From positions 547,704 through 611,703 of the forward strand of contig OZ241333.1 of the NCBI GenBank assembly GCA_965200085.1: DNA of 64,000 nucleotides, in the 5' to 3' direction. The notes below the pieces were generated by a model that saw only the letters and a list, made by a program, of their open reading frames with translations, made no database searches and had not been told where the DNA came from. Positions 6,834-64,000 of this stretch are shown in pieces. This DNA comes from Dehalococcoidia bacterium. GTDB taxonomy: Bacteria > Chloroflexota > Dehalococcoidia > Lucifugimonadales > JADFKI01. The stretch's first letter is position 1. Every line of letters begins with the position of its first letter. Both the position numbers and the translations under genes were made by a program.

Positions 6834-7954
6834 CGGTTATTAACTCTCCTTAGCATCTGCTTGCGCTCTGCCATGAGCCTATCAAGCTCGACTCGGTTTT
6901 CTGCAACCTTCGCGTTGCAGGTCTTGCAGTAATTGCTGTCCACTGCCTTCGCATGTTTCGGCTTTATCTCTAGGCAGCCTGAGCAATGGAAGTAGTCGCA
7001 GTCGCCGCAGAACCTGCCGTCGATAAGCGAGTACGACTTTGCGCCGCAGCTCTCGCAATAACCGGGGCTTGCCTTCTGCTGCTCCGTGAAGCCGTCCTGC
7101 ACACAGCGCCGTAGAACTGCCAGCGCGTAGCCGTGATAGCTCTTTTCAGAACTCTGAGCCTCGTTGAGTGCATAGGTTATAAAGTCTTCGGGTATTTCTG
7201 CGCCTTCGTTCTTCGCCATCCACTCTGCTTCGATCTCCTTCGCGTCTTGTCTCTGAATCCGCGAGAGCGGCGGGGCATCTTTCATCCTGCGAAGCTGTGC
7301 GTTGATCTGCTGAACTATCGTGGAGTCGGCGGCGACTGCGGCAGCCAAATCAGCCTGAGTTGGCGTGGTTTTTGCCGCTGTGTTCTGATTTTTGGCGGAA
7401 TTTCGCTGCTTCTTGCGCGCCGCACGGGATTTCTTGCGCTTCGGCTGCGCTGATTGACGGCTCGGGACGTGCTTATCCGCCGGCTTTTCTGTCGTCTGTT
7501 CTTTTTGAGCCTTTGCGGGCGGTTTGAATACCCTGCCGCGCCTCTCGGAAGTCCTGCCTGTGAGGTCTTCTACCTGCGCTTCAAGGACGCTGATGCGCTC
7601 CTTGAGTTCTCGAACCTCCCGGGTTTCCGACTTACTGTCGGAGACTGGAGATTCGGCTTCAGGCGGTGGTCTCTTCCTGCGGATACTGTCGGATTTCTTC
7701 TCGGCTATCTCACTGACATACAGCCTTTTCTTCTCTTTTGTGAAGATAACATCCAGACGCATCCGCCAACGTGTGCGCTGTGTGTACTGATTTCGGGCGG
7801 TATAGACCTTCTCTAAAAGGTCGAATTTGCCCAGCTCCGTCAGGTAATTCTGGAAGGTTCTGTAAGTCGTTCTGAGGTACGAATAGACTACGGATCTCAG
7901 GATGTAGAACTCACCGTTCTTTATCTGAAAGCCTGTATAACAGTCTATTACCAC
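6830..7954 (-). CDS. Replication-type protein: N-terminal wHTH-like region, basic/coiled middle, DnaD-like segment and C-terminal Cys-rich zinc ribbons; probably 5'-truncated
   Basis: YALNEAQSSEKSYHGYALAVLRRCVQDGF resembles the DnaD/phage replication-organiser C-terminal motif. It also has CESCG...CGDCDYFHCSGC...CKTC cysteine clusters. The frame is open upstream of the GTG at 7954 (..GLTAAQRDALS..) with no start codon and runs into the GH32 stub. Confidence 0.5.
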   Translation of the reverse strand: MVIDCYTGFQIKNGEFYILRSVVYSYLRTTYRTFQNYLTELGKFDLLEKVYTARNQYTQRTRWRMRLDVIFTKEKKRLYVSEIAEKKSDSIRRKRPPPEAESPVSDSKSETREVRELKERISVLEAQVEDLTGRTSERRGRVFKPPAKAQKEQTTEKPADKHVPSRQSAQPKRKKSRAARKKQRNSAKNQNTAAKTTPTQADLAAAVAADSTIVQQINAQLRRMKDAPPLSRIQRQDAKEIEAEWMAKNEGAEIPEDFITYALNEAQSSEKSYHGYALAVLRRCVQDGFTEQQKASPGYCESCGAKSYSLIDGRFCGDCDYFHCSGCLEIKPKHAKAVDSNYCKTCNAKVAENRVELDRLMAERKQMLRRVNNR

Positions 7955-7998
7955 GCTTAAGGCGTCTCGCTGCGCTGCGGTCAGCCCTGTCTGAAGTA

Positions 7999-8187
7999 TC
8001 AGCCGTTTGGATCGTTTATGACATTTTGCGGTGGAGAGAAATGGTACAGCGGGCGGTGCGGATCGGATACAAGACGGCGGCGCGCTGCTGCAAAGGCTTG
8101 CAGCATATCATCGGCGCTTAGGGCGTTGAGCTGATCTTCCAGTGTATCGGGGTATGTGGGACCTGACAGGGGCGAGTATGCTGTCAT
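7999..8187 (-). pseudogene. N-terminal stub (62 aa) of a glycoside hydrolase family 32 enzyme
   Basis: [21 protein letters not shown] matches the GH32 N-terminal catalytic motif (H-x-x-P-x-x-x-W-M-N-D-P-N-G). The ORF stops immediately after it and is followed by unrelated DNA. Confidence 0.6.
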
Positions 8188-8208
8188 TAGAAGATAGTCT
8201 CACTTGCT

Positions 8209-8961
8209 TCATTCAACGAACCGACCGAAAACAAAGAAACTCACATAAGCCTCTAAAGAGTTGAACTTGGGAAACTTATGTTGGGCTAGTTTCCGCCAAA
8301 ACTTATTCGCCTCTCGCAATTCAATCGACTCTGCTGCGTGGATAAGTTGTATATTGGGGTCTTCTCGGTAGAACCACTCAGCAAAATCGTCTTTCATTGC
8401 TAACCTTAGCTGCTTAAATGAGGGTAAGGTAGTCCAAGGTTTCTTTTCTGAAAACCAATCCGCACTACTTCCGCCGCTCCTATAAAGTTCGTACACAACA
8501 GGTATAAATAATTCAAAGTGAGGGGCTTTCAGGTGAGGTAGAATCTTGCTCTCAATTTGCGCAATGTCGGTTTGAACACTATTCGAAGATCGCTTATCAG
8601 GATAGAGTTTAGTTCTGATTCCATGCAAATCAATAGATATCCTATTCTGATCTCTTGAATGGCTGTTAGCAACCATTCCTTTGGATTCAATGGCAACAGC
8701 AATAGTATTATCACGAATCATACATAGATCAATCTTTTTCTGCACTCCTTTTGGATATTCTGACTCTATGGAATATCCACTGAACTTATCGGACAATGCC
8801 GATTTGATAATTGCATTCAGCGATCCTTCATAACGAACGGCTTTTGCTTCGGTGGCAATCTTTTGCGTAAGTGCGGTGTTTGCTTCACCTCTAATTCGAT
8901 CTTCTGCTAACCTAAATGCATTTTGTAATGTTTCCACAGAAACTGGAAGTATGGGATTCAT
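8209..8961 (-). CDS. Orphan hypothetical protein with a PD-(D/E)XK-type nuclease motif, in an AT-rich segment
   Basis: The 250-aa ORF has KKIDLCMIRDNTIAVAIESKG, giving D78-x13-E92-x-K94, with acidic residues (ESEYP) upstream. The DNA is clearly more AT-rich than its neighbours by eye. Function is inferred from the motif only. Confidence 0.45.
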   Translation of the reverse strand: MNPILPVSVETLQNAFRLAEDRIRGEANTALTQKIATEAKAVRYEGSLNAIIKSALSDKFSGYSIESEYPKGVQKKIDLCMIRDNTIAVAIESKGMVANSHSRDQNRISIDLHGIRTKLYPDKRSSNSVQTDIAQIESKILPHLKAPHFELFIPVVYELYRSGGSSADWFSEKKPWTTLPSFKQLRLAMKDDFAEWFYREDPNIQLIHAAESIELREANKFWRKLAQHKFPKFNSLEAYVSFFVFGRFVE

Positions 8962-9095
8962 GTGTTTTCCTCAACAAGTAACATATTGATTTATCATATT
9001 CATTCAACAAAACGAACTGACCTCTCGTATGATAACAAATGCCAGCCTTACATTTTGGCGCGCTGCTTGGCAGAGCAGGAATGAGCCGCGTGCCG

Positions 9096-9560
9096 CTACG
9101 ACTCAAGAAGAGGGTTGATCCCTCTGACATTGATGCCGTAATCGAATACCAGATCGCCGCCGGTCATCCCGGACATCGTCAGGAAGCCGGTCCCAACAAG
9201 GATAACGGCAAGGTATATTATTGATCTGCCCGCGTCCGAGCCTCTCCAGCGGGAGATCGACCTCCAGACTACCAGTGCGATGAAGAGGGCGGTTGTTGCG
9301 AAGCTCCAGTTCTGATGAGTATCTATGACGTTGTGTACGGGAGTGCCCTCGTATGCTTCGTGTCCTATAATCCCAGTTATGCTTGCTGCGATTGCCCCGA
9401 CAGTCCCTATCAGAAGCAGCACCCAGGACGCCTGATTCATACTGTCGCTTCCTCGCACACGCACCCAGATGCTTAGCGCCGCGCTCACAATGAGAAGAGC
9501 GATAGGGAAGTGGACTATGATGGGATGTATGTCTGTAATCGTGTCAGAAATTATATCCAT
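9096..9560 (-). CDS. DUF2231-family integral membrane protein
   Basis: It has the N-terminal signature IHPIIVHFPIALLIVSA and four predicted TM helices in 154 aa. Confidence 0.7.
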   Translation of the reverse strand: MDIISDTITDIHPIIVHFPIALLIVSAALSIWVRVRGSDSMNQASWVLLLIGTVGAIAASITGIIGHEAYEGTPVHNVIDTHQNWSFATTALFIALVVWRSISRWRGSDAGRSIIYLAVILVGTGFLTMSGMTGGDLVFDYGINVRGINPLLES

Positions 9561-9869: not shown

Positions 9870-9946
9870 TGGTCGGGGAGACTGGATTTGAACCAGCGAC
9901 CCCCTGCACCCCATGCAGGTGCGCTTCCAAACTGCGCCACTCCCCG
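9870..9946 (-). tRNA. tRNA-Pro (anticodon GGG), 77 nt with encoded CCA
   Basis: The reverse complement folds as a cloverleaf: CGGGGAG-TG-GCGC-AGTTTGGAA-GCGC-A-CCTGC-ATGGGGT-GCAGG-GGGTC-GCTGG-TTCAAAT-CCAGT-CTCCCCG-A-CCA. It has 7/4/5/5-bp stems, a T-loop TTCAAAT, U33, anticodon GGG and G37. Confidence 0.93.
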
Positions 9947-9956
9947 TCCAGCATCC

Positions 9957-9985
9957 AGAATAGCACAGCGCTTAGACGTGTTCAA
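9957..9985 (-). promoter_or_regulatory. Candidate sigma-70-type promoter of tRNA-Pro
   Basis: The minus strand has TTGAAC (9985-9980), a 17-nt spacer and TATTCT (9962-9957). The tRNA 5' end lies 10 nt downstream of the -10 element. Confidence 0.45.
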
Positions 9986-9998
9986 GAGCAATTGCGAG

Positions 9999-11186
9999 CT
10001 CACGCGTACCCAGTTTGGAAAGGAGTGATGCCGAGATAGTAGGGAGGAGGTTCATAGTATGCAAAGTAGTATTCCAGTCCGAGGTGCAAAACCCCAAGTT
10101 TGCCCCAGGAACAGACTTGTTTCCGAAATGACGGCGATACACGCATCCCAACAAGAATGAGCACAACACACGCCAGCACAACACCAAGCAGCAGACGCTG
10201 AAGACGACTTGATGTGGTAACGGTCGTGGAAGCAAGAGAGAAGCGCTGCTTGCCGTCCCTGAAGTACTGTTCAGGCTGCATCCGCTTGCGGTACATCTTC
10301 ACAGCAAGTCTCGCATCAGACAAGGAAGTTGCCAGATACCACGGATCCTTATGTCCGCTTCCCCAGAACAGCACGAGGTTTGTAGTCACTGCGCCATCCT
10401 GACGATACTTCACACCCGGCACGAACACGATGCGCCGCTTCCGCAGAGGGTAATCTCGCAATCTGCACCTGAACTCCTCACTTTGCACTATCACATCTTT
10501 CTTGAGCCGGATGACATAGTCCACAGGGTATCCACTGAAAGAAGGGAGGCGCTGTATAAACAGAAGCAGACTGGCTCTGCCAAAACCCCTGTCAGCAAGT
10601 ATCAGCGGACGAACAGTGTTGGGCAGGTGAGTTACCAGTCTGCGAATGAACATCTCCTCAAGGCGATTTTGAGAGGGATTCAGCTCCTCACTGCGCGACA
10701 CCCAGCTCAGAAGTGGGAGACCTCTCTTCCTGAAGCAGACCGCAGCGAACAGTCCGTTGAAACCTCTGCCAAGATCAGACCAGTCTATCATTATGGGTGT
10801 GAGACCTTTGAGTCGTGCGGTTGAGACGATGTGAGGCATCATCGCGGTCTGTGTTTGAAAGGGATCTAGGCGGTGGTTGGACAGGAAGCGGAACAGTCGC
10901 TTCTTGTTGTGGTGATGCGAGCTGGTTCTGGTTAGAGAGGATCGGGCAAGTTCTCTTGCGAGTACGGATAGTGAGAGTTGGCGGCGAGAGAGGATAGAGC
11001 AGGTTAACAGAGCGAGGTTAACTTTTCTGGTAGCTCTGATATTGGGGATAGCGCAGTTGAGAAATGTGCTGATGCTGTTATACCATTTCATTGGTCGGAC
11101 TCCTCAGGCAGAGTTTTGTCAACTTATATCTATACCTGAGTATCCGACCTTTTTCTATACCTCGTACTAAACTGGGTACGCGTGAG
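9999..11186 (-). mobile_element. Intact IS4-family insertion sequence (about 1.19 kb) with 18-bp perfect terminal inverted repeats and a 10-11-bp target site duplication
   Basis: CTCACGCGTACCCAGTTT at 9999-10016 is the exact reverse complement of 11169-11186. The direct repeat caattgcgag flanks both ends (9989-9998 and 11187-11196). A single transposase ORF lies inside. Confidence 0.85.
10000..11091 (-). CDS. IS4-family DDE transposase (363 aa)
   Basis: It has ILADRGF (second catalytic D) and YRKRMQPEQYFRDGKQ, which is the IS4 signature Y-x2-R-x3-E-x6-K. The ORF is uninterrupted. Confidence 0.85.
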   Translation of the reverse strand: MKWYNSISTFLNCAIPNIRATRKVNLALLTCSILSRRQLSLSVLARELARSSLTRTSSHHHNKKRLFRFLSNHRLDPFQTQTAMMPHIVSTARLKGLTPIMIDWSDLGRGFNGLFAAVCFRKRGLPLLSWVSRSEELNPSQNRLEEMFIRRLVTHLPNTVRPLILADRGFGRASLLLFIQRLPSFSGYPVDYVIRLKKDVIVQSEEFRCRLRDYPLRKRRIVFVPGVKYRQDGAVTTNLVLFWGSGHKDPWYLATSLSDARLAVKMYRKRMQPEQYFRDGKQRFSLASTTVTTSSRLQRLLLGVVLACVVLILVGMRVSPSFRKQVCSWGKLGVLHLGLEYYFAYYEPPPYYLGITPFQTGYA

Positions 11187-31150: not shown

Positions 31151-32176
31151 ATGCTTGCCGGCAAACTACCGCTTGAACTGCTTTCACGGCTACTGTCCGA
31201 CATCGAAGTGCGCGATCCTCGCGTAGCTCTGGGCGCGCGCGCAGGCGAAGACGCCGCGCTCATCGACATGGGCGATCGCTACCTCGTAACCAAAACAGAC
31301 CCTATCACCTTCGCGACTGACCTCATCGGCTGGTATCTGGTGCAGGTGAACGCAAACGACCTAGCCTCAATGGGCGCTGCCCCGCGCTGGCTGATGGCGA
31401 CACTGCTCCTGCCTGAAGGCACCACCGAAAAACAGACGGAAGCGATATTCACTCAGCTTCTGGAAGCCTGCAGCTCGCTCGGCGTTACCCTCATCGGCGG
31501 CCACACAGAGATAACCTACGGCCTGCCGCGCCCAATCGCCATGGGCGCTATGCTTGGCGAAGTGGCGAAAGACAAAGTTGTGCTGACTTCCGGCGCCCAG
31601 ATAGGGGACAGCATCGTTCTTACGCAGGGCGTCGCAATCGAGGGCACATCCATACTCGCGCGAGAGGCGGAAGCCATCCTGTCAGCCAAAGGCGTGCCTC
31701 AAAGCATCATTGAAAGCGCAAAGTCGCTCCTGTTCACGCCGGGTATCAGCATAGCCTCAGCAGCAAAGATAGCGTGCGAAAGCGGTGGAGTTAATGCGAT
31801 GCATGATCCCACTGAGGGCGGAATCGCCACTGCGCTGCTAGAACTCGCCACCGCCGCAAATGTCGGATTGAGTATTCACGCAGACCGGATACCCATACTG
31901 CCCGAGTGCCGCGCCATCTGTGAGGCGCTTTCGTTAGATCCCCTCGGACTCATCGCATCAGGCGCGCTTCTCGCAACACTGCAGCCACCCGACGCCGAGC
32001 GCCTCGTCGCCGCGCTGAGCAGAGAAGGCATTCCGGCTGCAATAATCGGCAGCGTCGTCCCTCTGTCTGATGGCAGGCGTCTCATCTCGGGCGGCGCAGA
32101 ACTTCCGCTACCAGTCTTCCCCCGCGACGAGCTTGCGCGCTTCTTCGCCGACGATAATGATTTAGATGACGCGTAA
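31151..32176 (+). CDS. AIR-synthase-related (PurM-fold; HypE/ThiL-like) protein
   Basis: It has GEDAALIDMGDRYLVTKTDPITF, NANDLASMGAAPRWL and LIGGHTE, typical of the PurM-like ATP-binding fold. There is no N-terminal Cys/Sec loop. Confidence 0.75.
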   Translation: MLAGKLPLELLSRLLSDIEVRDPRVALGARAGEDAALIDMGDRYLVTKTDPITFATDLIGWYLVQVNANDLASMGAAPRWLMATLLLPEGTTEKQTEAIFTQLLEACSSLGVTLIGGHTEITYGLPRPIAMGAMLGEVAKDKVVLTSGAQIGDSIVLTQGVAIEGTSILAREAEAILSAKGVPQSIIESAKSLLFTPGISIASAAKIACESGGVNAMHDPTEGGIATALLELATAANVGLSIHADRIPILPECRAICEALSLDPLGLIASGALLATLQPPDAERLVAALSREGIPAAIIGSVVPLSDGRRLISGGAELPLPVFPRDELARFFADDNDLDDA

Positions 32177-32752: not shown

Positions 32753-34192
32753 ATGCCCTATCAGTTCAACCGCTTCGCAGTTATCGCAATCTTATTCGCC
32801 GTCGCAGCAGCAGCCCTCATCGCCTGCTCACAGCAGCCTGCAGCTCAGCCCGCACCAACGCCTGCGCCTACAATCGCAGCAGCAGCGCCCCCCACAGCCG
32901 CAGCGCCTCCCGCACCAACGGCAACATCGCAGCCCGCCCCAAGTCCGACCGCAGAAGCCACGCCTGTGCCTACACCCGAACCCACATCTACTCCAACACA
33001 GGAACCTGCCGCCGCTGCGTCCGAAGAAGCCGCCACAGAGACCCATGACGCGATTACTTTCAATCTAAACGAAGAGACTATTGCCCGCTACAAGATAGAA
33101 GAAGTGCTGGCAGGTACCGGCTTTAAGGTCGCCATCGGCGAAACATCAGAAATCACAGGGCGCATCGTGTTCAACGACGACGGCTCAATATCAGCCGACG
33201 ACAGCAGCATCGCGCTGCAGGCAGGCACATTCGTCTCCGACAGCGACCGCCGCGACCGATATGTCCGCGACCGCACGCTCTCCACATCGCAGTACCCGGA
33301 AATAGTGTTTCACCCCATATCAGCCGAAGGACTGCCATCCCCTTTGAGCGATGCAAGCGGTAAAGTCGAATTCACCATCAGCGGCAATCTAACCGTCCTC
33401 GACCAGACGCGCCCTGTAACCTGGGATGCATCGGCAGAGTTCGGGGATGATGATAGTATCACAGGCACAGCCGCCGTAGAGATAACCTTCGAGCAGTTCA
33501 ATATAGACAAGCCCAGAGTAGCAGTCGTCGTTAGCGTCGAGGATACGATACGATTAGAAATAGACTTCGTAGGCAGCCTAGAACGATCCGTCGCAATGAA
33601 CACAGCCGCAGATGAAGAGGGCATCGAGGAGCACATATACGATGTCGACGGGATTGACGACGAAGCCTATGCTCAGATACTGGGCAGCGCAGACGCCCCC
33701 GTAACCGTAGTGGAGTTCTCCGATTTCCAATGACCGTATTGCCGCACGTTTGCCCTCGGGTCAGGGCGACAGATAATCGAAGAATTCGTAGATTCAGGTA
33801 AGGTGCGCTTCGTATATCGCCACTTAATCGTCATCAGCGAGGCTTCCATAATCACCGCGATGGGAGCCGAATGTGCTGCCGAGCAGGACATGTTCTGGCA
33901 GTTCCACGACTCTGTTTTCGAAAACTGGGCAGACGGCAGGCAAAACGGCTTCTCATACACTTGGTCGCTGGACAGAGCAGAAGACCTTGCGTTGGACACC
34001 GCAGAGTTTAGGGAATGCATGGAATCCAGCGAAAACGCATTCGAGCGAGTCAGAGCCAGCCATTTTGACGGCAGAGAGCGCGGCGTCAACTCCACGCCAA
34101 CCGTCTTGATTAATGGCATACGCGTTGGCGGAGACTACGAGGCGTTCCGGCAAGCCATCGAAGATGCCCTTGACGAAAATGATGGCAACTGA
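32753..34192 (+). CDS. Lipoprotein fusing a YceI-like domain to a DsbA-like thioredoxin-fold domain, with an in-frame TGA at the first Cys of the CxxC motif (candidate selenoprotein, or a nonsense pseudogene)
   Basis: Track ORFs 32753..33733 and 33803..34192 are in the same frame, and I found no other stop between them. The sequence reads APVTVVEFSDFQ-TGA-PYCRTF...KVRFVYRHL...AECAAEQDMFWQFHD...GVNSTPTVLINGIRV, the DsbA family pattern with C-P-Y-C becoming U-P-Y-C. The N-terminus has the lipobox AAALIAC, then a PA/PT linker and a YceI-like core (SDSDRRD..YPEIVF). Confidence 0.6.
33750..33769 (+). promoter_or_regulatory. Candidate bacterial SECIS-like hairpin downstream of the in-frame TGA
   Basis: The stem is TTGCCCT/AGGGCGA (5 Watson-Crick pairs plus a G-U and a U-A) with apical loop CGGGTC containing GGU. 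The loop starts 23 nt after the TGA at 33731-33733. Confidence 0.35.
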
Positions 34193-34226: not shown

Positions 34227-35678
34227 CTACATCGTCTCCGTCATATCCAATCCGCCCTGTCCTTCATCCACATAAGTCGCACTGCCAATGCGCGAGATTG
34301 TCATGTGCTGGCGGTATGTCCCGTTTGCGAGCCTGCGCTCAGCCCTGTGCGTGCTCGTCTGCCAGTCAGCCGCTTCGCCGCCCGCCAGCGCCTCATGCAG
34401 CACACGCCCGTCCATTGCCTCACCCCCGCCTATACCCAACAGCCGCAGAATAGTTGGCGCAAGGTCTATATTCCCGCTTGGGCTTTCAACACGGACGCCC
34501 CTCTTGAAACTGCTTCCCTTAGCAAAAAGCACATTCCGCATCTCATGACGGCTCATGGAGCCATGCTGCCCCAGCTCCGGCGCGCCCCCGCTCGAATAGA
34601 CATAACCCGCATACCCCGCAGCATTAACGCGCGAATCCCCGCGAAAAGACATCGCAATGTCAGGCGCGCGCTGCCCTTCAATCCCGGCGAGCGACGCAGG
34701 CAGAACTCCCTCAATCGTTCCCACAGCATCAGACGCCGCCACTGCGCCGCACCAAGTCTGAGACATAAGCCACACTGCAAGCCTGTTCGCCGTCGCCGCA
34801 TCTGACCTGTGCACATAGAACAGCGCAGACCCGCCATTGGGCGCGACAGTAACACCGCCGGCTTCCTCACCCGGCGGAAAGCCAGCTTCCCACACCAGCG
34901 CCTCAATGTCTATAACTTCAATTATCGTGGAATATCCATGGTCTGACACAACCAACACATCAGCGTCTGCGCCCATACCGCTTTGTTCCAGCCATGCCAT
35001 CAGCCTGCCGAACTCTGCGTCTGCCTCTCGCAGCGCCCGTGTCCCCACATCCGAGCCTACGCCGTGGGCATGCTGTGCGTGATCCGGCTCAGAAAACCAG
35101 ACGAACGCCACCGCAGGTTTGCGCTCCGGAAGCACGTACTCGGTCATGACATCCACCGCGCGCGTCAGCTTGTCTGCGTTGGTCTCTCCTTCCGCAGGCC
35201 ACTCTCCGAAGCGTGTTCTTATTTCACTGTGCAGAGTGCGCGGCAGGCAGAAGTCAGGGTGTATTGTCGCGCCGCCAACGCGTTCGGCGTTCGGATTATG
35301 CACATAAGCATTTCCGCTTGTGCCAGTACCCACGGCGATATACTCGCGCCCATGCTGAAACAGCAGGTCTGCGAGGGTAGGGGACAGCAGAACCGAAGTC
35401 TTGCGCGCGGCTTCGGCAAGGGTCGGCTCCATCGCAGAGAAGGCTCTGTACTCATCGGCATCGCGCATCACCAGCGTATTCGCCGCCAGCCCATGCGCGC
35501 CGGGATGCCGTCCCGTAACCATGCTCGCAGCGTTGGTGCGCGTTACGCTCGGATAGACCGGATGGTGATTGTCAAAGACAACGCCGTCAGCCGCAAACGC
35601 AGACAGGTTCGGCATCAGTTCCGGCGTAACTTGCGCCGGCTGCAGCCCGTCAAATGCAGCAACTAATACAAATCGCAT
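34227..35678 (-). CDS. Alkaline-phosphatase-superfamily protein (type I phosphodiesterase / nucleotide pyrophosphatase-like)
   Basis: It has FDGLQP..TP.MPNL, YPSVTRTNAASMVTG (nucleophile Thr context), SEPDHAQHAHG and VVSDHG. The likely start is MRFVLVAAFDG at 35678. Confidence 0.8.
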   Translation of the reverse strand: MRFVLVAAFDGLQPAQVTPELMPNLSAFAADGVVFDNHHPVYPSVTRTNAASMVTGRHPGAHGLAANTLVMRDADEYRAFSAMEPTLAEAARKTSVLLSPTLADLLFQHGREYIAVGTGTSGNAYVHNPNAERVGGATIHPDFCLPRTLHSEIRTRFGEWPAEGETNADKLTRAVDVMTEYVLPERKPAVAFVWFSEPDHAQHAHGVGSDVGTRALREADAEFGRLMAWLEQSGMGADADVLVVSDHGYSTIIEVIDIEALVWEAGFPPGEEAGGVTVAPNGGSALFYVHRSDAATANRLAVWLMSQTWCGAVAASDAVGTIEGVLPASLAGIEGQRAPDIAMSFRGDSRVNAAGYAGYVYSSGGAPELGQHGSMSRHEMRNVLFAKGSSFKRGVRVESPSGNIDLAPTILRLLGIGGGEAMDGRVLHEALAGGEAADWQTSTHRAERRLANGTYRQHMTISRIGSATYVDEGQGGLDMTETM

Positions 35679-35776
35679 TTCAACATAGCCCCGCTCAGAA
35701 AAAGCTGTCAATCAGCGGTGATATTATTCCCTAATACCCAATCCGCCGCCCAGTCCGAAGTTCATCTCGCCAATCG

Positions 35777-36142
35777 CTAATCGTACACCGTCGTCTCGCT
35801 CGCCGGATGCGTCAAAGATATGTGCGAAAAATCCTCGCCGTCCACCGCGCCGTGCCAGTGCTTCTCGCCTGCCGGTATCAGCGCAGTATCCCCTTCGCCC
35901 ACCTCAACCTGCTCAGATTCGGTCGCTACATAGCCTTTGCCGCTGAGCACAAACAAAATCTGGTCGCTGGTGTGCGTGTGAAACTTGTTCTTCGCCCCGT
36001 TGAAAAAACTCACCTTGTTGAAGTTAAAATCCCCGCTCATGCCGCCGCCCACAATCGCCTCACCCGTAACCTTGCCGCCATAAAATATCGGCGCGTCTGT
36101 GCGGTCTTCCGCCTCGTTCTGTCCCTTCCTGACAACCTGCAT
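35777..36142 (-). CDS. Cupin-domain protein
   Basis: Two cupin motifs are present: G.KNKFHTHTSDQILFVLSGKG and IPAGEKHWHGA. Length is 121 aa. Confidence 0.75.
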   Translation of the reverse strand: MQVVRKGQNEAEDRTDAPIFYGGKVTGEAIVGGGMSGDFNFNKVSFFNGAKNKFHTHTSDQILFVLSGKGYVATESEQVEVGEGDTALIPAGEKHWHGAVDGEDFSHISLTHPASETTVYD

Positions 36143-40608: not shown

Positions 40609-40798
40609 TATCGCCTCCATCTGAACTTACTTTTTCCATGCATAACACATCAGTATGAAAGATGAAAGTTATTTTACACGAATAAGCGCTATACGCCGTA
40701 CAGCCGCAACCCGTACTGTAATACACCATTCATACATATTATCGTCCTCTGTGGTAATATAAGCCTTGTGAAATCCAAACCAATACGAGGTGATATGC

Positions 40799-43060
40799 AT
40801 GACAACAATGATACCCCAGGAAGAATACAAGGTCGTCGGCACGCGCCCCGTGCGGCATGACGGCGTTGACAAAGTAACCGGCCGCGCCCTCTACGGCGCC
40901 GACATGAACCTCGCCGGGCTGCTGCACGGCAAAGTTCTGCGCAGCCCGCACGCCCATGCGCGCATCAAATCCATCGACACCAGCAGAGCCGAAGCGCATC
41001 CCGATGTCAAGGCGGTCGTTACATCCGCCGACTTCGCTCCTATGTCGCCTATTCCTCAGGTCGCGCGACAGGGTGTTCCCATCGCCGAAAACGTCCTCGC
41101 CAAGGACAAGGTTCTCTACAAAGGACACCCCATCGCCGCAGTGGCGGCAGTCAACCCGCATGTCGCGGAAGAAGCGCTCGCGCTCATCGATGTGGAGTAT
41201 GAAGTGCTGCCCAGCGTGTCAAACGTCGAGGACGCTCTTGAACCGGACGCGCCCGTACTGCACGAGCACTGGATAGAGCGCGGTGGCGACGGTATCATCC
41301 CCGCAAGCAAGAACATCGCCGACCACGAACAGCACATTTTCGGCGACATTGAGGCAGGTTTCGCCGCTGCTGACAGGGTGTTCGAGCGCGAATACCGCAC
41401 CAAAACGGTGCATCAAGGCTACATCGAGCCGCACACTGCCACCGCGCTCTGGACAGCAGACGGCGCGCCAAACGACCGGCTCACCATTTGGAGCAGCAGC
41501 CAAGGCCACTTCGCCATGCGCGACAGCACAGCCGAAGTTCTGGGCATTCCGAACTCGCAAATCAAAGTAATCCCGATGGAGATTGGCGGCGGATTCGGCG
41601 GCAAAACGCTCGCATACCTCGAAGCCGTATCATCGGCGCTCTCCCGCAAGAGCGGCAAGCCCGTCAAATCAACAATGACGCGCACGGAAGTCCTCGAAGC
41701 ATCCGGTCCTACAGCCGGCGGCTACCTGAAATGCAAAATCGGTGTAACTGACGAAGGGCGCATCACCGCCGCCCAGATTTACTTCGCCTTCGAAGGCGGC
41801 GCATATCCCGGCGCGCCATTGCCCGGCTCTTCCGCCGCCGTCTTTGCTCCATACTACATCGAAAATGTCCGTATCGACGGCTACGACATCATGACGAACA
41901 AACCCAAGACAGCAGCGTACCGCGCTCCCGGAGCACCAATAGTTTGCTTCGCGTCCGAAAGCCTTATAGACGAGATTGCTCAGTCGCTCGATATGGATTC
42001 CGTGGACTTCCGACTGCTGAATGTCGCAACTCCCGGCACGCGCAGAGCAGACGGCGTACTAAACGGCCCCATCGGCGCAAAAGAGACAATGGAAGCCATC
42101 AAAGCGCATCCACACTACAACACTCCGCTGGAAGGCGCAAACCGAGGACGCGGCATCGCAATGGGATTCTGCCGCAACAACTCCGGCATGGCATCCGCCA
42201 TCGCCAACGTCCTCTCCAACGGCACCGTCAGCCTCATCGAAGGCAGCATGGACATCGGCGGCTCGCGCACCGCAATTGCTCAGATGTTCGCCGAAACGCT
42301 CGGGCTGCCAATCGAAGATGTCATACCCACCGTCGGCGATACCGACTCCGTAGGCTACACATCCACATCCGGCGGCAGCGGCGTAGCCTTCAAATCCGGC
42401 TTCGCAGCCTTCGAAGCCGCAAACGACGTCAAGCGTCAGTGCATCCAGCGCGCCTCCATGCTCTGGGAAACCGACGAAGACCAAGTCGAGTATGCGGACG
42501 GTGGACTGCGCCACAAGTCCGACACCGAACTCACCATGTCCTTCAAGGAAATCGCATCCCGCATGCCCGAAACAGGCGGTCCAATAGTCGGCAGGGCAAA
42601 CATGAACCCTGGCGGCTCCGCAGGCTCGTATGCCGCCAACATCGTGGACATCGAAGTTGACCCCGAAACCGGCAAAGTCGAGATTCTGCGCTACACCGCC
42701 TTCCAAGACGTCGGCATCGCAGTGCATCCCAGCTACGTCGAAGGGCAGATACAGGGAGGCACGGTGCAGGGTATCGGCTGGGCGCTCAACGAAGAGTATT
42801 ACATGAGCGCAGACGGCGCCATGCTTAACAGCAGCCTGCTCGACTACCGCATGCCCACCGCGCTCGACCTGCCCATGATAGAAGCCGTCGTGCTAGAAGT
42901 GCCCAACCCGGCGCATCCATACGGCGTAAAAGGCGTCGGCGAAGCCAACATAGTTCCGCCACTCGCCGCACTCGCCAACGCCATCCACGATGCAGTCGGC
43001 GTCCGCATGTACGATCTCCCCATGAACCCGCAGGCAGTAACAGCAGCAATCGCCGAATAA
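40799..43060 (+). CDS. Molybdopterin-binding large subunit of a xanthine dehydrogenase / aldehyde oxidase / CO-dehydrogenase family hydroxylase
   Basis: It has VGTRPVRHDGVDKVTGRALYGAD, HQGYIEPH, GGGFGGK, YRAPGAP and GVGE..IVPP motifs in about 750 aa. No Fe-S or FAD subunit gene is adjacent. Confidence 0.88.
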   Translation: MTTMIPQEEYKVVGTRPVRHDGVDKVTGRALYGADMNLAGLLHGKVLRSPHAHARIKSIDTSRAEAHPDVKAVVTSADFAPMSPIPQVARQGVPIAENVLAKDKVLYKGHPIAAVAAVNPHVAEEALALIDVEYEVLPSVSNVEDALEPDAPVLHEHWIERGGDGIIPASKNIADHEQHIFGDIEAGFAAADRVFEREYRTKTVHQGYIEPHTATALWTADGAPNDRLTIWSSSQGHFAMRDSTAEVLGIPNSQIKVIPMEIGGGFGGKTLAYLEAVSSALSRKSGKPVKSTMTRTEVLEASGPTAGGYLKCKIGVTDEGRITAAQIYFAFEGGAYPGAPLPGSSAAVFAPYYIENVRIDGYDIMTNKPKTAAYRAPGAPIVCFASESLIDEIAQSLDMDSVDFRLLNVATPGTRRADGVLNGPIGAKETMEAIKAHPHYNTPLEGANRGRGIAMGFCRNNSGMASAIANVLSNGTVSLIEGSMDIGGSRTAIAQMFAETLGLPIEDVIPTVGDTDSVGYTSTSGGSGVAFKSGFAAFEAANDVKRQCIQRASMLWETDEDQVEYADGGLRHKSDTELTMSFKEIASRMPETGGPIVGRANMNPGGSAGSYAANIVDIEVDPETGKVEILRYTAFQDVGIAVHPSYVEGQIQGGTVQGIGWALNEEYYMSADGAMLNSSLLDYRMPTALDLPMIEAVVLEVPNPAHPYGVKGVGEANIVPPLAALANAIHDAVGVRMYDLPMNPQAVTAAIAE

Positions 43061-49090: not shown

Positions 49091-49720
49091 GTGTTAGCAT
49101 TTATAGATGAATCGGGAGATACAGGAAGAAAGCTGCTGAACAATTCCAGCAGGTATCTTGTAGTGGCTGTAATTATATTCCAAAATAACTCGGACGCCCA
49201 AGCATGCGACGATGCAATCCATCAACTGCGAAGAGAACTTAATCTGCGCGCAGCCTACGAGTTCCACTACGCCGATAACTCACCCAGAGTCAAAGAAGCC
49301 TTTATCAGAAAGGTATCGGTACATCGTTTTACCTATCATGTATGTATTATCAACAAAGCGGCAGACAGCCTAACCGACGCAAGCCTGGAATACGGAAAAG
49401 AACTTTACAAATTCGCCATATCAAAAGCGATTGAAAGTGCAGAACCCCATCTGCGTAACGCATCCGTAATTATCGATGAGAGCGGAGGTAAAAGATTCGG
49501 ACGCGAGCTGTCGGCACATCTACGACAGAACCTGCGGGACAAAGGGATGGAACGATCAGCCAGAAAATTAGCGATGAAAAACTCAGAAGGAAATAATCTG
49601 CTGCAACTGGCAGATTATGTCGCAGGAATCGTAAATCGTGCGCTGCAAGGAAGACAAAGGGAAATGAGCTTTATGACACAATACTTGGCGCCTCACGAAA
49701 TAGGCAGGCAAGTGTTGTGA
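49091..49720 (+). CDS. DUF3800-family protein
   Basis: It has (V)LAFIDESGDTG at the N-terminus, an internal IIDESGG and NNLLQLADYVAG near the C-terminus, the signature layout of DUF3800. It has a GTG start and lies in a segment that looks AT-richer. Confidence 0.75.
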   Translation: MLAFIDESGDTGRKLLNNSSRYLVVAVIIFQNNSDAQACDDAIHQLRRELNLRAAYEFHYADNSPRVKEAFIRKVSVHRFTYHVCIINKAADSLTDASLEYGKELYKFAISKAIESAEPHLRNASVIIDESGGKRFGRELSAHLRQNLRDKGMERSARKLAMKNSEGNNLLQLADYVAGIVNRALQGRQREMSFMTQYLAPHEIGRQVL

Positions 49721-50061
49721 TAAAGCGCGTAATCGCGTAATAATGATGACTGAACCCTATCCATCCTCATGGGAATGGCAGGCCCCCAGTCAAGGGGACT
49801 TTTCGGGTTCAGCCCAATTCCAATTACCATTCTAACGAACGCCGGACGAATGTCAAGCGCGCCTTGAATCGTAAAACCGTCATCCAATTACACCCGCGCC
49901 GCCCAACTTAATGCCAACTTAATGTATGATGGTAGCAAACTTGTACCATACTCACGCCAAACTTGTAATTAACACTTTGTATATCCTGTACACTAATGCC
50001 AATGCCCATTTGGAGCCCAAATAGGCTTTCGCTCACAAGCCCCCATTCCAAAGGTGTTGTT

Positions 50062-62802: not shown

Positions 62803-64000
62803 CTACGACGTCCCCACCACCTCCTCATCCACCAGCGACTGCACCTGATCGTCCGAATAACCCAAAATATCCGACAGCAGCTCGCGCGTATGCTGCCCCA
62901 CCGTCGGCGCAGAACCCACCACCATCGGCGTGCGGCTGAACTTGATCGACTCGCCGCTCACCCACATCGTCCCAGCCACAGGATCCGGCACTTCCATCAT
63001 AATATCGCGCTCGTGCAGCTGCGGCTCGTTCGCTGCCTGCTCCGTCGTGTTCACCGGCGCGCAGGGTATGCTGTGCGCCGACAGGTCATCCACCGCCTGC
63101 TTCGTGCTGCGCTGCTTCAGCCATGCGCCAATCTCCCCCTCCAGCACATCCACATTCTCCGTCCGCGAATCCCTGCTCTGGAAGCGCGGATCCTCAAGCC
63201 ACTCAGGCTTGCCCAGCGCATCGCACACCCGCAGCCACATGTTATCGTTCCCCGCTGCCAGTATGACATAGCCGTCTGCCGTCTCGTACATGCCGCCGAA
63301 CGGCGTTCCCCCGCCTCCGACCGCCGAGTCCGGCCGCGTAGTCTCCACGCCGCCGCCCAGATACGCCGATATCGGGATCTCGTTTACAGTAAATCCTGTA
63401 TCCGCAAGGCAAACTTCAAGCGCCTGCCCCTCGCCTGATAATTCACGCTCACGCAGCGCCGCAAGCGCGCCAATGCAGGCATGCAGCGCAGTAATGCGGT
63501 CTATCAGCGGGAAGTACGTCTTAATCGGCGGCAGGTCGCCGTACCCCGTCAGCGACATAAGTCCGCCCATCGCCTGTCCTATAGGATCGAAGCCAACCTT
63601 ATCCCGATTAGGACCATACTGCCCATACGCCGACACATTTATCATAATAATCTTCGGATTAAGCTTCTTCAGCGTCTCATACCCAAAGCCCATAATGTCA
63701 ATTGTGCCGGGACGGAAGTTCTGCAAAAGAATGTCCGAAACTTTCACAAGATCGCGCAGCACCTCCTTGCCTTTATCAGTGCGAAGGTTAATCGCAAGGC
63801 TCTTCTTGCCGCTGTTATATTGCACCCAATATGCGGACTGCCCCCTCACTCTGGGACCATTGGCGCGGCTCTCATCGCCGCGCACCGACTCCACCTTGAT
63901 AACCTCAGCGCCCATCCGCGCGAACATCAGCGCACATCGCGGACCAGCCTGATATCGGCCCAAGTCCAGCACTCTTATGCCCTCAAGCGGCGTACTCAGT
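62803..64000 (-). CDS. Second family III (CaiB/BaiF-type) CoA-transferase, 5' end at or beyond the window edge
   Basis: The frame stays open to base 64000 (LSTPLEGIRVLDLGRYQAGPRCALMFARMGAEVIKVES). The track start at 63972 is the internal Val of the RVLDLG motif. Confidence 0.85.
   Translation of the reverse strand, partial: LSTPLEGIRVLDLGRYQAGPRCALMFARMGAEVIKVESVRGDESRANGPRVRGQSAYWVQYNSGKKSLAINLRTDKGKEVLRDLVKVSDILLQNFRPGTIDIMGFGYETLKKLNPKIIMINVSAYGQYGPNRDKVGFDPIGQAMGGLMSLTGYGDLPPIKTYFPLIDRITALHACIGALAALRERELSGEGQALEVCLADTGFTVNEIPISAYLGGGVETTRPDSAVGGGGTPFGGMYETADGYVILAAGNDNMWLRVCDALGKPEWLEDPRFQSRDSRTENVDVLEGEIGAWLKQRSTKQAVDDLSAHSIPCAPVNTTEQAANEPQLHERDIMMEVPDPVAGTMWVSGESIKFSRTPMVVGSAPTVGQHTRELLSDILGYSDDQVQSLVDEEVVGTS

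Follow-up and report, generated by a model that had tools for sequence, protein, structure and literature searches.

In the 64-kb stretch of DNA analyzed here (64,000 nucleotides of contig OZ241333.1 from a Dehalococcoidia bacterium, hereafter “the window”), the region from position 32753 to 34192 on the plus strand is very probably one gene, and a genuine selenoprotein gene, which, judged from sequence comparison, should encode a product of 479 residues. It comprises 479 codons, with a proposed selenocysteine (Sec) at codon 327 and the TGA at 34190-34192 as terminator, and the same layout is present in 21 other loci. Sec is preferred over a nonsense mutation at codon 327 because TGA is conserved at this position, Cys occupies it in distant homologs, the ratio of nonsynonymous to synonymous substitution rates (dN/dS) is low downstream of it, and a conserved and covarying hairpin resembling a bacterial Sec insertion sequence (SECIS) element follows. 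A preliminary description of the window had suggested a Sec-containing lipoprotein with a YceI-DsbA fusion, and the same evidence, together with the lipobox and the Pfam domains of the product, supports this suggestion.

The ATG-started open reading frame (ORF) from 32753 to 33733 contained 326 codons, and in the translation the same frame ran on from 33734 to 34189 for 152 codons more. The TGA at 33731-33733 was the sole in-frame stop before the terminator, in agreement with the earlier statements that two ORFs of one frame are parted solely by this TGA and that no stop occurs between 33734 and 33802. The translation around the TGA reads ..APVTVVEFSDFQ-*-PYCRTFALGSGRQ.., with the residues ..VVEFSDFQ upstream, and the TGA (plus strand) would specify Sec327 as residue 1 of a U-P-Y-C motif encoded by 33731-33742. 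The records in NCBI and ENA split the gene into a protein of 326 aa (P0001) and another one of 129 aa (P0121).

When the 479-residue sequence with Cys in place of the TGA was used as query in a protein search, the best 120 clusters (52 to 67% identity, 275 to 347 residues long) aligned to the pre-TGA region only, which represents 47–68% of the query. In 119 of these 120 clusters, the protein ended with ..(V/I)(E/D)(F/Y)S(D/T)(F/I)(Q/L), i.e., at the residue preceding the TGA, which is the position of ..EFSDFQ in the window. A scan of one genome per GTDB species yielded 63 loci, all of them from Dehalococcoidia, SAR202, or “Chloroflexi” metagenome-assembled genomes (MAGs), several from sponge metagenomes. 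The fusion was present in 20 of the 63 loci, all 20 with TGA at the codon in question and with a downstream frame that was open and conserved to the same C terminus. A scan of Joint Genome Institute (JGI) metagenomes gave two loci only and did not enlarge the covariation set used below, but one JGI locus (L068) contained the same fusion with the same TGA. This resulted in 22 distinct fusion loci, the window plus 21 others, from Dehalococcoidia/SAR202 and many of them from sponges, with TGA at the codon in 22 of 22 cases (all 21 species of the codon table plus L068). The motifs at the TGA were UPYC, UPHC, UVHC, and UIHC. The remaining 43 of the 63 loci encoded YceI-only lipoproteins with a stop directly after the barrel, and no DsbA-like gene was found within 10 kb of these YceI-only loci. 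No Cys version of the YceI-DsbA fusion was found in the loci and proteins sampled. From these comparisons, the fusion is restricted to a Dehalococcoidia/SAR202 clade and appears to contain always Sec in the sampled part of it.

A second protein search used the C-terminal domain as query, and 120 hits were considered. The closest 35 matches were fragments of 107 to 148 residues with 48 to 71% identity (33 of them with 107 to 134 residues and 60 to 71%); none contained CxxC, and they are post-TGA remnants with starts called at arbitrary internal codons. The next 85 matches were complete DsbA-family proteins of 175 to 301 residues with 50% identity or less, and in all 85 the aligned stretch reads ..EFSDFQ-C-P(F/Y)C.. 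or differs from it only slightly. The TGA thus stands where a CxxC motif has its nucleophilic Cys, which bears out its earlier assignment to the first Cys of a DsbA-type C-P-Y-C motif. TGA versus Cys at one aligned column is the classic signature for calling selenoproteins.

A nonsense mutation of TGC or TGT to TGA had been named as the alternative in the preliminary description; if recent, it would have left a pseudogene, or a truncated YceI lipoprotein with the decaying remains of DsbA behind it. One base change would be enough for such an event, and gene callers as well as the NCBI/ENA annotation deliver two ORFs of 326 aa and 129 aa. This explanation is nevertheless hardly conceivable, due to the presence of TGA in 22 of 22 fusion loci and at the end of 119 of the 120 best clusters and to a downstream frame that remains intact up to the same end point in all loci. 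The 66 codons behind the TGA gave a median pairwise dN/dS of 0.15 at a nearly saturated dS of 0.94, indicating that the post-TGA frame is translated and under purifying selection. Relatives with TGC or TGT and without a conserved hairpin, which would have spoken for the mutation, did not appear: the fusion loci all had TGA, and the hairpin was conserved. A single contaminating sequence is excluded by the 45 to 70% divergence of the loci. Six assemblies or sequencing runs of the window's species, independent of one another, contained the same TGA and the same hairpin, so that the TGA is no assembly error, a source that had also been considered before. On the strength of this comparison, a pseudogene and an assembly error are both regarded as excluded.

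The 326-aa and 129-aa ORFs could also represent two separate genes, one for a YceI lipoprotein ending at the TGA and the other for a small thioredoxin-like protein from an internal start. ORF finders call the 129-aa ORF from a GTG at 33803, and in sister lineages, YceI lipoproteins similar in length occur on their own. Conversely, the 23 codons that lie between the TGA and this earliest possible start belong to the best conserved ones (..P[YH]CR.FALGPGRQII..) and include the second Cys of the motif, so a product starting at 33803 would be without redox motif, first strand, and signal peptide. The called starts vary between species, and promoter and terminator scans between both parts showed nothing beyond chance. 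An arrangement of two genes is consequently very improbable.

The hairpin at 33750-33769 (plus strand) consists of a 7-bp stem formed by TTGCCCT at 33750-33756 with AGGGCGA at 33763-33769 and of the loop CGGGTC (CGGGUC) at 33757-33762, exactly as originally claimed, with spacers of 16 nt between UGA and stem and of 23 nt between UGA and loop. The model for bacterial SECIS elements requires an apical loop of 3 to 9 nt, an upper stem of 4 to 16 bp, a G in loop position 1 or 2, a UGA-to-loop distance of 16 to 37 nt, and a minimum free energy (MFE) of −7.5 kcal/mol or lower (PMC13188914, Fig. 2). The hairpin of the window agreed with this model in all points, with a loop of 6 nt, 7 bp, a G at loop position 2, 23 nt, and −9.0 kcal/mol, and the earlier statement that its spacing is in the bacterial range was correct. 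The MFE values obtained for the element were between −9.0 and −11.1 kcal/mol.

Conservation and covariation of the hairpin were evaluated in a set of 16 distinct sequences. All seven pairs form in all 16 sequences, meaning that 100% of the cells are paired, compared to 33 to 57% when the 3′ arm was slid by 1 to 3 columns. Stem pair 2 was C-G in 11 sequences, U-A in 4, and U·G in 1, which is the window; the closing pair was U-A in 15 and U·G in 1. The substitutions in the hairpin were the C-G to U-A double change, which occurred twice, and two U·G changes, with zero disruptive ones. According to a neighbor-joining protein tree, the double change arose twice independently, once within the UPYC clade in L016, the sister of the C-G-bearing L012, and once within the U(V/I)HC clade in L017, L019, and L021; the hairpin covaries over the orthologs. 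In both switches, the 3′ change entails the replacement of Arg by Gln, indicating that the pairing was kept at the protein's expense. The Ala, Leu, Gly, Gly, and Arg codons of stem and loop (+7 to +12) were codon-invariant in 21 species with zero synonymous variation. Among the conserved 4- or 6-fold-degenerate codons, 5 of 5 in the hairpin were codon-invariant versus 0 of 20 elsewhere between −25 and +69 (Fisher P = 1.9e-5).

Evaluation of the proposed Sec decoding needs to consider several observations that speak against it. Folding with RNAfold supported the described hairpin in part: the hairpin itself was recovered, with −9.0 kcal/mol alone, but the surrounding 76 nt as a whole were no more stable than shuffled sequences (z = +1.6), and the evidence for the hairpin is for this reason the cross-species comparison and not the energy. 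The covariation comes from one variable pair, with five of the seven pairs never varying. The invariance of the nucleotides could in part be due to a strong codon preference, but codons for Ala, Leu, Gly, and Arg elsewhere in the gene vary freely. No Rfam match to the hairpin was obtained, neither at the gathering thresholds over the whole window nor with E up to 10 over 33650-33900, and this null result is uninformative on SECIS elements since the bacterial ones are poorly covered in Rfam. Pfam and NCBIfam scans of 45 ORFs, almost all of those with at least 200 aa in the window (the 389-aa ORF at 62803-63972 by NCBIfam only), revealed no selA, selB, or selD in the 64 kb, and no tRNA-Sec (selC) was found there by ARAGORN and Rfam. 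Finally, the best NCBIfam match of the product, NF041057 (“Rcas_1661 family thioredoxin-like (seleno)lipoprotein”), gave 149.6 bits over profile positions 73-246 of 247 and did not reach the cut-off of 190 bits, so that the protein is not a member of this family by that test. ARAGORN found no tRNA-Sec in 20 carrier loci, a regular-expression scan for the SelD motif over all loci produced only noise outside coding frames, and a search for other TGA-interrupted genes in the window, internal or near the termini, gave nothing convincing.

That no Sec genes were seen in the scanned 64-kb window may also be taken as a point for decoding of the UGA as a standard amino acid (Trp, Gly, or Cys), either by a changed code or by hairpin-stimulated near-cognate read-through. 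Structures 3′ of a stop can stimulate read-through, and the inserted residue cannot be told from the sequence alone. TGA terminated 14 of the 45 window ORFs, however, including the selenoprotein gene itself; it is thus an ordinary terminator, which means that the code is the standard one and the recoding local. Recoding affects the catalytic nucleophile, a position that tolerates only Cys or Sec without loss of function and that is Cys in all complete homologs. Geometry and loop G of the hairpin fit the SelB-type SECIS model, and the nearest curated family, NF041057, is a known Sec/Cys family. In addition, SelA, SelB, and SelD have been reported in one carrier genome: contig MPND01000006 (L065) of “SAR202 cluster bacterium bin90” (Slaby et al. 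2017) carries an ortholog with the TGA, and bin90 contains three SelA (COG1921), one SelB (COG3276), and one SelD (COG0709) (Slaby et al. 2017, Table S4). Insertion of a standard residue is, taken together, very improbable. SelA and SelB are enriched in sponge symbionts (Slaby et al. 2017), and Dehalococcoidia MAGs with 46 to 49 selenoproteins are documented in the BSepDB paper, one of them bearing an isolate name in the UUID style of the genomes recovered here. The Sec genes of bin90 and these selenoprotein counts lend indirect support to the presence of a Sec machinery.

With Sec as the decoded residue, the ribosome would meet the UGA at codon 327, and the 7-bp hairpin with its loop CGGGUC would act as a bacterial SECIS element that recruits SelB with Sec-tRNA(Sec). 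Sec would be inserted, as the sequence comparison suggests, and translation would continue for 152 codons to the real terminator TGA, which has no hairpin behind it. Under limitation of selenium or Sec-tRNA, translation may stop at the UGA instead, with a 326-residue YceI-only lipoprotein as the product, which would resemble the stand-alone YceI lipoproteins of sister SAR202 lineages.

As predicted from its sequence, the product is a lipid-anchored extracytoplasmic protein composed of a tether, a YceI barrel, an acidic linker, and a DsbA-like domain with a U-P-Y-C center, on account of the signal peptide with its lipobox, the model of the barrel, and the Foldseek and BdbD matches described below. 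All features are on the plus strand. The lipoprotein signal peptide (32753-32827) is visible in the sequence and as helix 4-26 of the AlphaFold2 model; it contains the lipobox L-I-A-C with Cys25 (32825-32827) as the would-be lipidated N terminus, and A24-C25-S26 were at least 90% conserved in 23 and 36 homologs. It is followed by an Ala/Pro/Thr-rich, flexible tether (residues 26-99, 32828-33049) with 22 Ala, 19 Pro, and 13 Thr in 74 residues and a predicted local distance difference test (pLDDT) score below 50. The YceI-like beta-barrel, a lipocalin-like, polyisoprenoid-binding fold, covers residues ~100-278 (33050-33586) according to Pfam, AlphaFold2, and Foldseek. An acidic interdomain linker (residues 279-308, 33587-33676), recognizable from the sequence and its low pLDDT, leads to the DsbA-like thioredoxin-fold domain with helical insert (residues 309-471, 33677-34165), which is defined by PF13462, NF041057, and the BdbD match.

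The Pfam and NF041057 scores were computed with Cys in place of TGA/U. PF04264 (YceI) matched residues 123-272 with 63.1 bits (cut-off, 23.7), PF13462 (Thioredoxin_4) residues 309-471 with 106.3 bits (cut-off, 23.2), and PF01323 (DSBA) gave a weaker match of 35.7 bits (cut-off, 25.6). The AlphaFold2 model, which covers the N-terminal 326 residues only, showed the signal helix, a disordered tether, and a confident barrel with strands between 101 and 278 and a pLDDT of mostly 80 to 96. Foldseek assigned this barrel with a probability of 1.00 to the PDB structures of the polyisoprenoid-binding protein TT1927b (1wub), Escherichia coli YceI (1y0g), BcnA (5ixh), and a protein of S. degradans (2x32), with target-normalized template-modeling scores of 0.51 to 0.64; the matches included Pseudomonas and Burkholderia lipocalins (BcnA/BcnB) and the Saccharophagus polyisoprenoid-binding domain. 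The profile score and the lipocalin-like barrel of the model thus both place this part into PF04264, and profile scores, a CxxC-type motif, and a Thr-Pro loop place the C-terminal domain into PF13462/PF01323.

The closest solved structure of the C-terminal domain by sequence was BdbD from Bacillus subtilis (3eu3; E = 4e-19, residues 308-473), and the domain also resembles other DsbA proteins from monoderms or alphaproteobacteria. The alignment with BdbD took in the redox motif and the Thr448-Pro449 loop of the DsbA-like domain (34094-34099), with ..NSTPTV.. opposite ..QATPTI.. of BdbD. Both proteins share the motif context ..APVTVVEF.D[FY].CP.C.., the Thr-Pro loop, and an extracytoplasmic location, whereas BdbD contains Cys instead of Sec and no YceI domain. 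BdbD is a membrane-associated DsbA-like oxidase of a monoderm and is re-oxidized by a separate quinone-linked membrane partner, BdbC. Cys374 (33872-33874) and Cys422 (34016-34018) occupy conserved positions of the helical insert and may form a structural disulfide.

After export, a lipid on Cys25 would anchor the protein to the outside of the cytoplasmic membrane, and, as judged from the knowledge about its family, it would act there as an extracytoplasmic thiol-disulfide (selenenylsulfide) oxidoreductase with U327-P-Y-C330 as redox center, where Sec in place of the nucleophilic Cys would speed exchange reactions. The fused YceI barrel would most likely hold an isoprenoid lipid, plausibly a respiratory quinone, beside the redox center and in this way link the center to the redox pool of the membrane. 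Presentation of a quinone or isoprenoid to the redox center would be the favored role of the YceI domain, and it is at the same time the least certain step of the mechanism. That a YceI domain may hold a quinone within an extracytoplasmic redox protein has a precedent in the YceI-like X158 domains, which bind ubiquinone-8 and occur in secreted redox proteins together with fused cytochrome c domains (PMC8981238). Two points weigh on the other side: a functional coupling of the YceI and DsbA-like parts can be inferred only, and no conserved redox partner of the DsbB, VKOR, or CcdA type was found in the flanks across differing genomic contexts. That the fusion is a self-contained, membrane-tethered redox module, in which YceI holds a quinone (or an oxidized isoprenoid or lipid) directly against the U-x-x-C center, is put forward as a tentative possibility with less than even chances by far. 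If it is correct, these sponge-associated Dehalococcoidia would couple disulfide formation, or the reduction of lipid peroxides, to the quinone pool with no need for a membrane partner of the DsbB/VKOR type, and the long-enigmatic YceI family would obtain a concrete redox role. As a corollary, the UGA would be a selenium-dependent switch between a YceI-only and a YceI-DsbA product.

The main functional rival to such a quinone coupling is the use of the same product not as a disulfide-forming oxidase but for detoxification of lipid peroxides or peroxyl radicals in the envelope, similar to glutathione peroxidase 4 (GPx4), with the barrel capturing the oxidized lipid and the Sec domain reducing it. 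Sec is typical of peroxide-reducing thioredoxin-fold enzymes, as in the glutathione peroxidase (GPx) and peroxiredoxin (Prx) selenoproteins. The YceI lipocalin BcnA, which is among the structural matches of the barrel, protects the envelope from lipid peroxyl radicals together with the cytochrome b561 LcoA (PMC9113575). The C-terminal domain is, on the other hand, DsbA/BdbD-like with a helical insert and U-P-Y-C and not peroxiredoxin- or GPx-like, and no partner that could supply the reductant, such as CcdA/DsbD, was seen nearby. A detoxifying function is also doubtful for these reasons, and the current evidence does not separate it from quinone coupling.

Compared to known families, the kind of selenoprotein is not new, since UxxC selenoproteins similar to DsbA and DsbG were already known in 2004-2005 (PMC1088965; table in PMC13188914). 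The “DsbA-like protein form 1” (PF01323) from Sargasso Sea metagenomes (PMC1088965) has in common with the protein of the window the UxxC in place of CxxC in a DsbA-type fold, the marine origin, and a SECIS hairpin directly downstream. That family is of the COG2761/PF01323 type, while the domain in the window matches PF13462 (106 bits) in the first place and PF01323 only weakly (36 bits) and is part of a YceI-fused lipoprotein. NF041057 is listed as a UxxC “DsbG-like” selenoprotein in a 2026 review (PMC13188914). Its members share with the protein of the window the lipoprotein character of the Chloroflexi type and a thioredoxin-fold domain whose xxC motif is headed by Sec or Cys; the lipoprotein signal (lipobox LIAC) and the U/C-x-x-C trait, as U-P-Y-C within profile positions 73-246, are both present in the window. 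The NF041057 model comprises signal, linker, and domain in 247 positions, in contrast to the 479 residues of the window protein, which leaves profile positions 1-72 unmatched and possesses a YceI barrel of ~180 residues and a second linker between anchor and domain. A UVHC-clade ortholog scored 145.5 bits, and the nearest Cys homologs were also below the cut-off with 130 to 180 bits. Because the window protein and its nearest Cys homologs alike stay below this threshold, the fusion protein is assigned by sequence to a neighboring subfamily of NF041057 with an inserted YceI domain.

The barrel belongs to the same fold and Pfam family as TT1927b, E. coli YceI, BcnA, and the X158 domain of Cbp2D/Cbp2E, but none of these has a thioredoxin-fold fusion or Sec. 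No called protein joining YceI and DsbA was present in the 120 plus 120 hits of the full-length and C-terminal-domain searches, which bears out the earlier impression that this architecture is unfamiliar. Among the best 150 of 2575 relatives in a library of 1.84 billion proteins, the long proteins were tandem YceI or YceI plus Dioxygenase_C. The tandem YceI proteins had 450 to 750 aa, and a fusion of YceI to an intradiol-dioxygenase-like domain (PF00775) occurred in the distant relatives P0273 and P0294, which again hints at combinations of YceI barrels with redox or metal domains. Neither the 2026 review (PMC13188914) nor the BSepDB paper mentions YceI. While the UxxC DsbA/DsbG-like lipoprotein as such is a known kind of selenoprotein, its fusion architecture with YceI is new and unannotated. 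In NCBI/ENA, the gene and at least 119 similar protein clusters are split at the TGA into a “YceI” protein and a small “thioredoxin” fragment, and this is why fusion and selenoprotein are invisible in the protein databases; NF041057, the curated model expected to catch the protein, misses it by ~40 bits. The selenoproteome of Dehalococcoidia/SAR202 gains a lineage-restricted, apparently always-Sec family, with many carriers being sponge symbionts. The knowledge about Sec decoding remains unchanged by this, as the decoding is ordinary and the fusion is the useful functional lead: as a Rosetta-stone fusion, it provides a testable hypothesis for the function of YceI and for the recycling of extracytoplasmic oxidoreductases in monoderm Chloroflexota.

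Directly upstream of the selenoprotein gene, a gene at 31151-32176 (plus strand) encodes a 341-aa AIRS/AIRS_C protein, which is 69 to 84% identical across species. It was considered as selD and rejected, with a TIGR00476 score of 77 bits compared to the cut-off of 125 bits and no N-terminal Cys/Sec-Lys motif. The scores for HypE (113 versus 251 bits) and ThiL (109 versus 184 bits) were below their cut-offs, too, yet better than that for SelD, and the closest structures were those of HypE. The data do not support a link between this gene and the metabolism of selenium. The order HAD, AIRS, fusion gene, and cupin was kept in 13 carrier species; in a 14th one, only the 3′ end of the AIRS gene was present at a contig edge. 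The small cupin (35777-36142, minus strand; 121 aa, Cupin_2) is unusually conserved with 89 to 96% identity across species versus 57 to 85% for its neighbors. In other carriers, it follows the fusion gene directly. A phosphodiesterase/sulfatase-like gene (PF01663) at 34227-35711 on the minus strand is located between the selenoprotein gene and the cupin in the window's species only and looks like a lineage-specific insertion. In a low-coverage record of the same species (L001; ENA ERZ25068762, ctg127870_2x_l), the HAD and AIRS genes at 7553-9423 were frameshifted into two or three pieces. These frameshifts, absent from the window and the other assemblies, are assembly errors of that record, whereas in all assemblies the TGA of the selenoprotein gene is the same.

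Elsewhere in the window, a gene at 40790-43060 (plus strand) encodes the large subunit of a molybdenum hydroxylase similar to XdhA or 4-hydroxybenzoyl-CoA reductase. As a selenium-dependent xanthine dehydrogenase (XDH), it reached 285 bits compared to a cut-off of 830 bits and provided no evidence for a second selenium trait. A tRNA-Pro(GGG) gene (9870-9946, minus strand) adjoins a DDE transposase ORF (10000-11091, minus strand), and the region from 9870 to 11091 may be a landing site for an insertion sequence by the tRNA gene. A DUF3800-IX RNA (RF02968, 49.6 bits) at 49743-49815 on the minus strand adjoins the gene for a DUF3800 protein at 49091-49720 on the plus strand, which is a known association.

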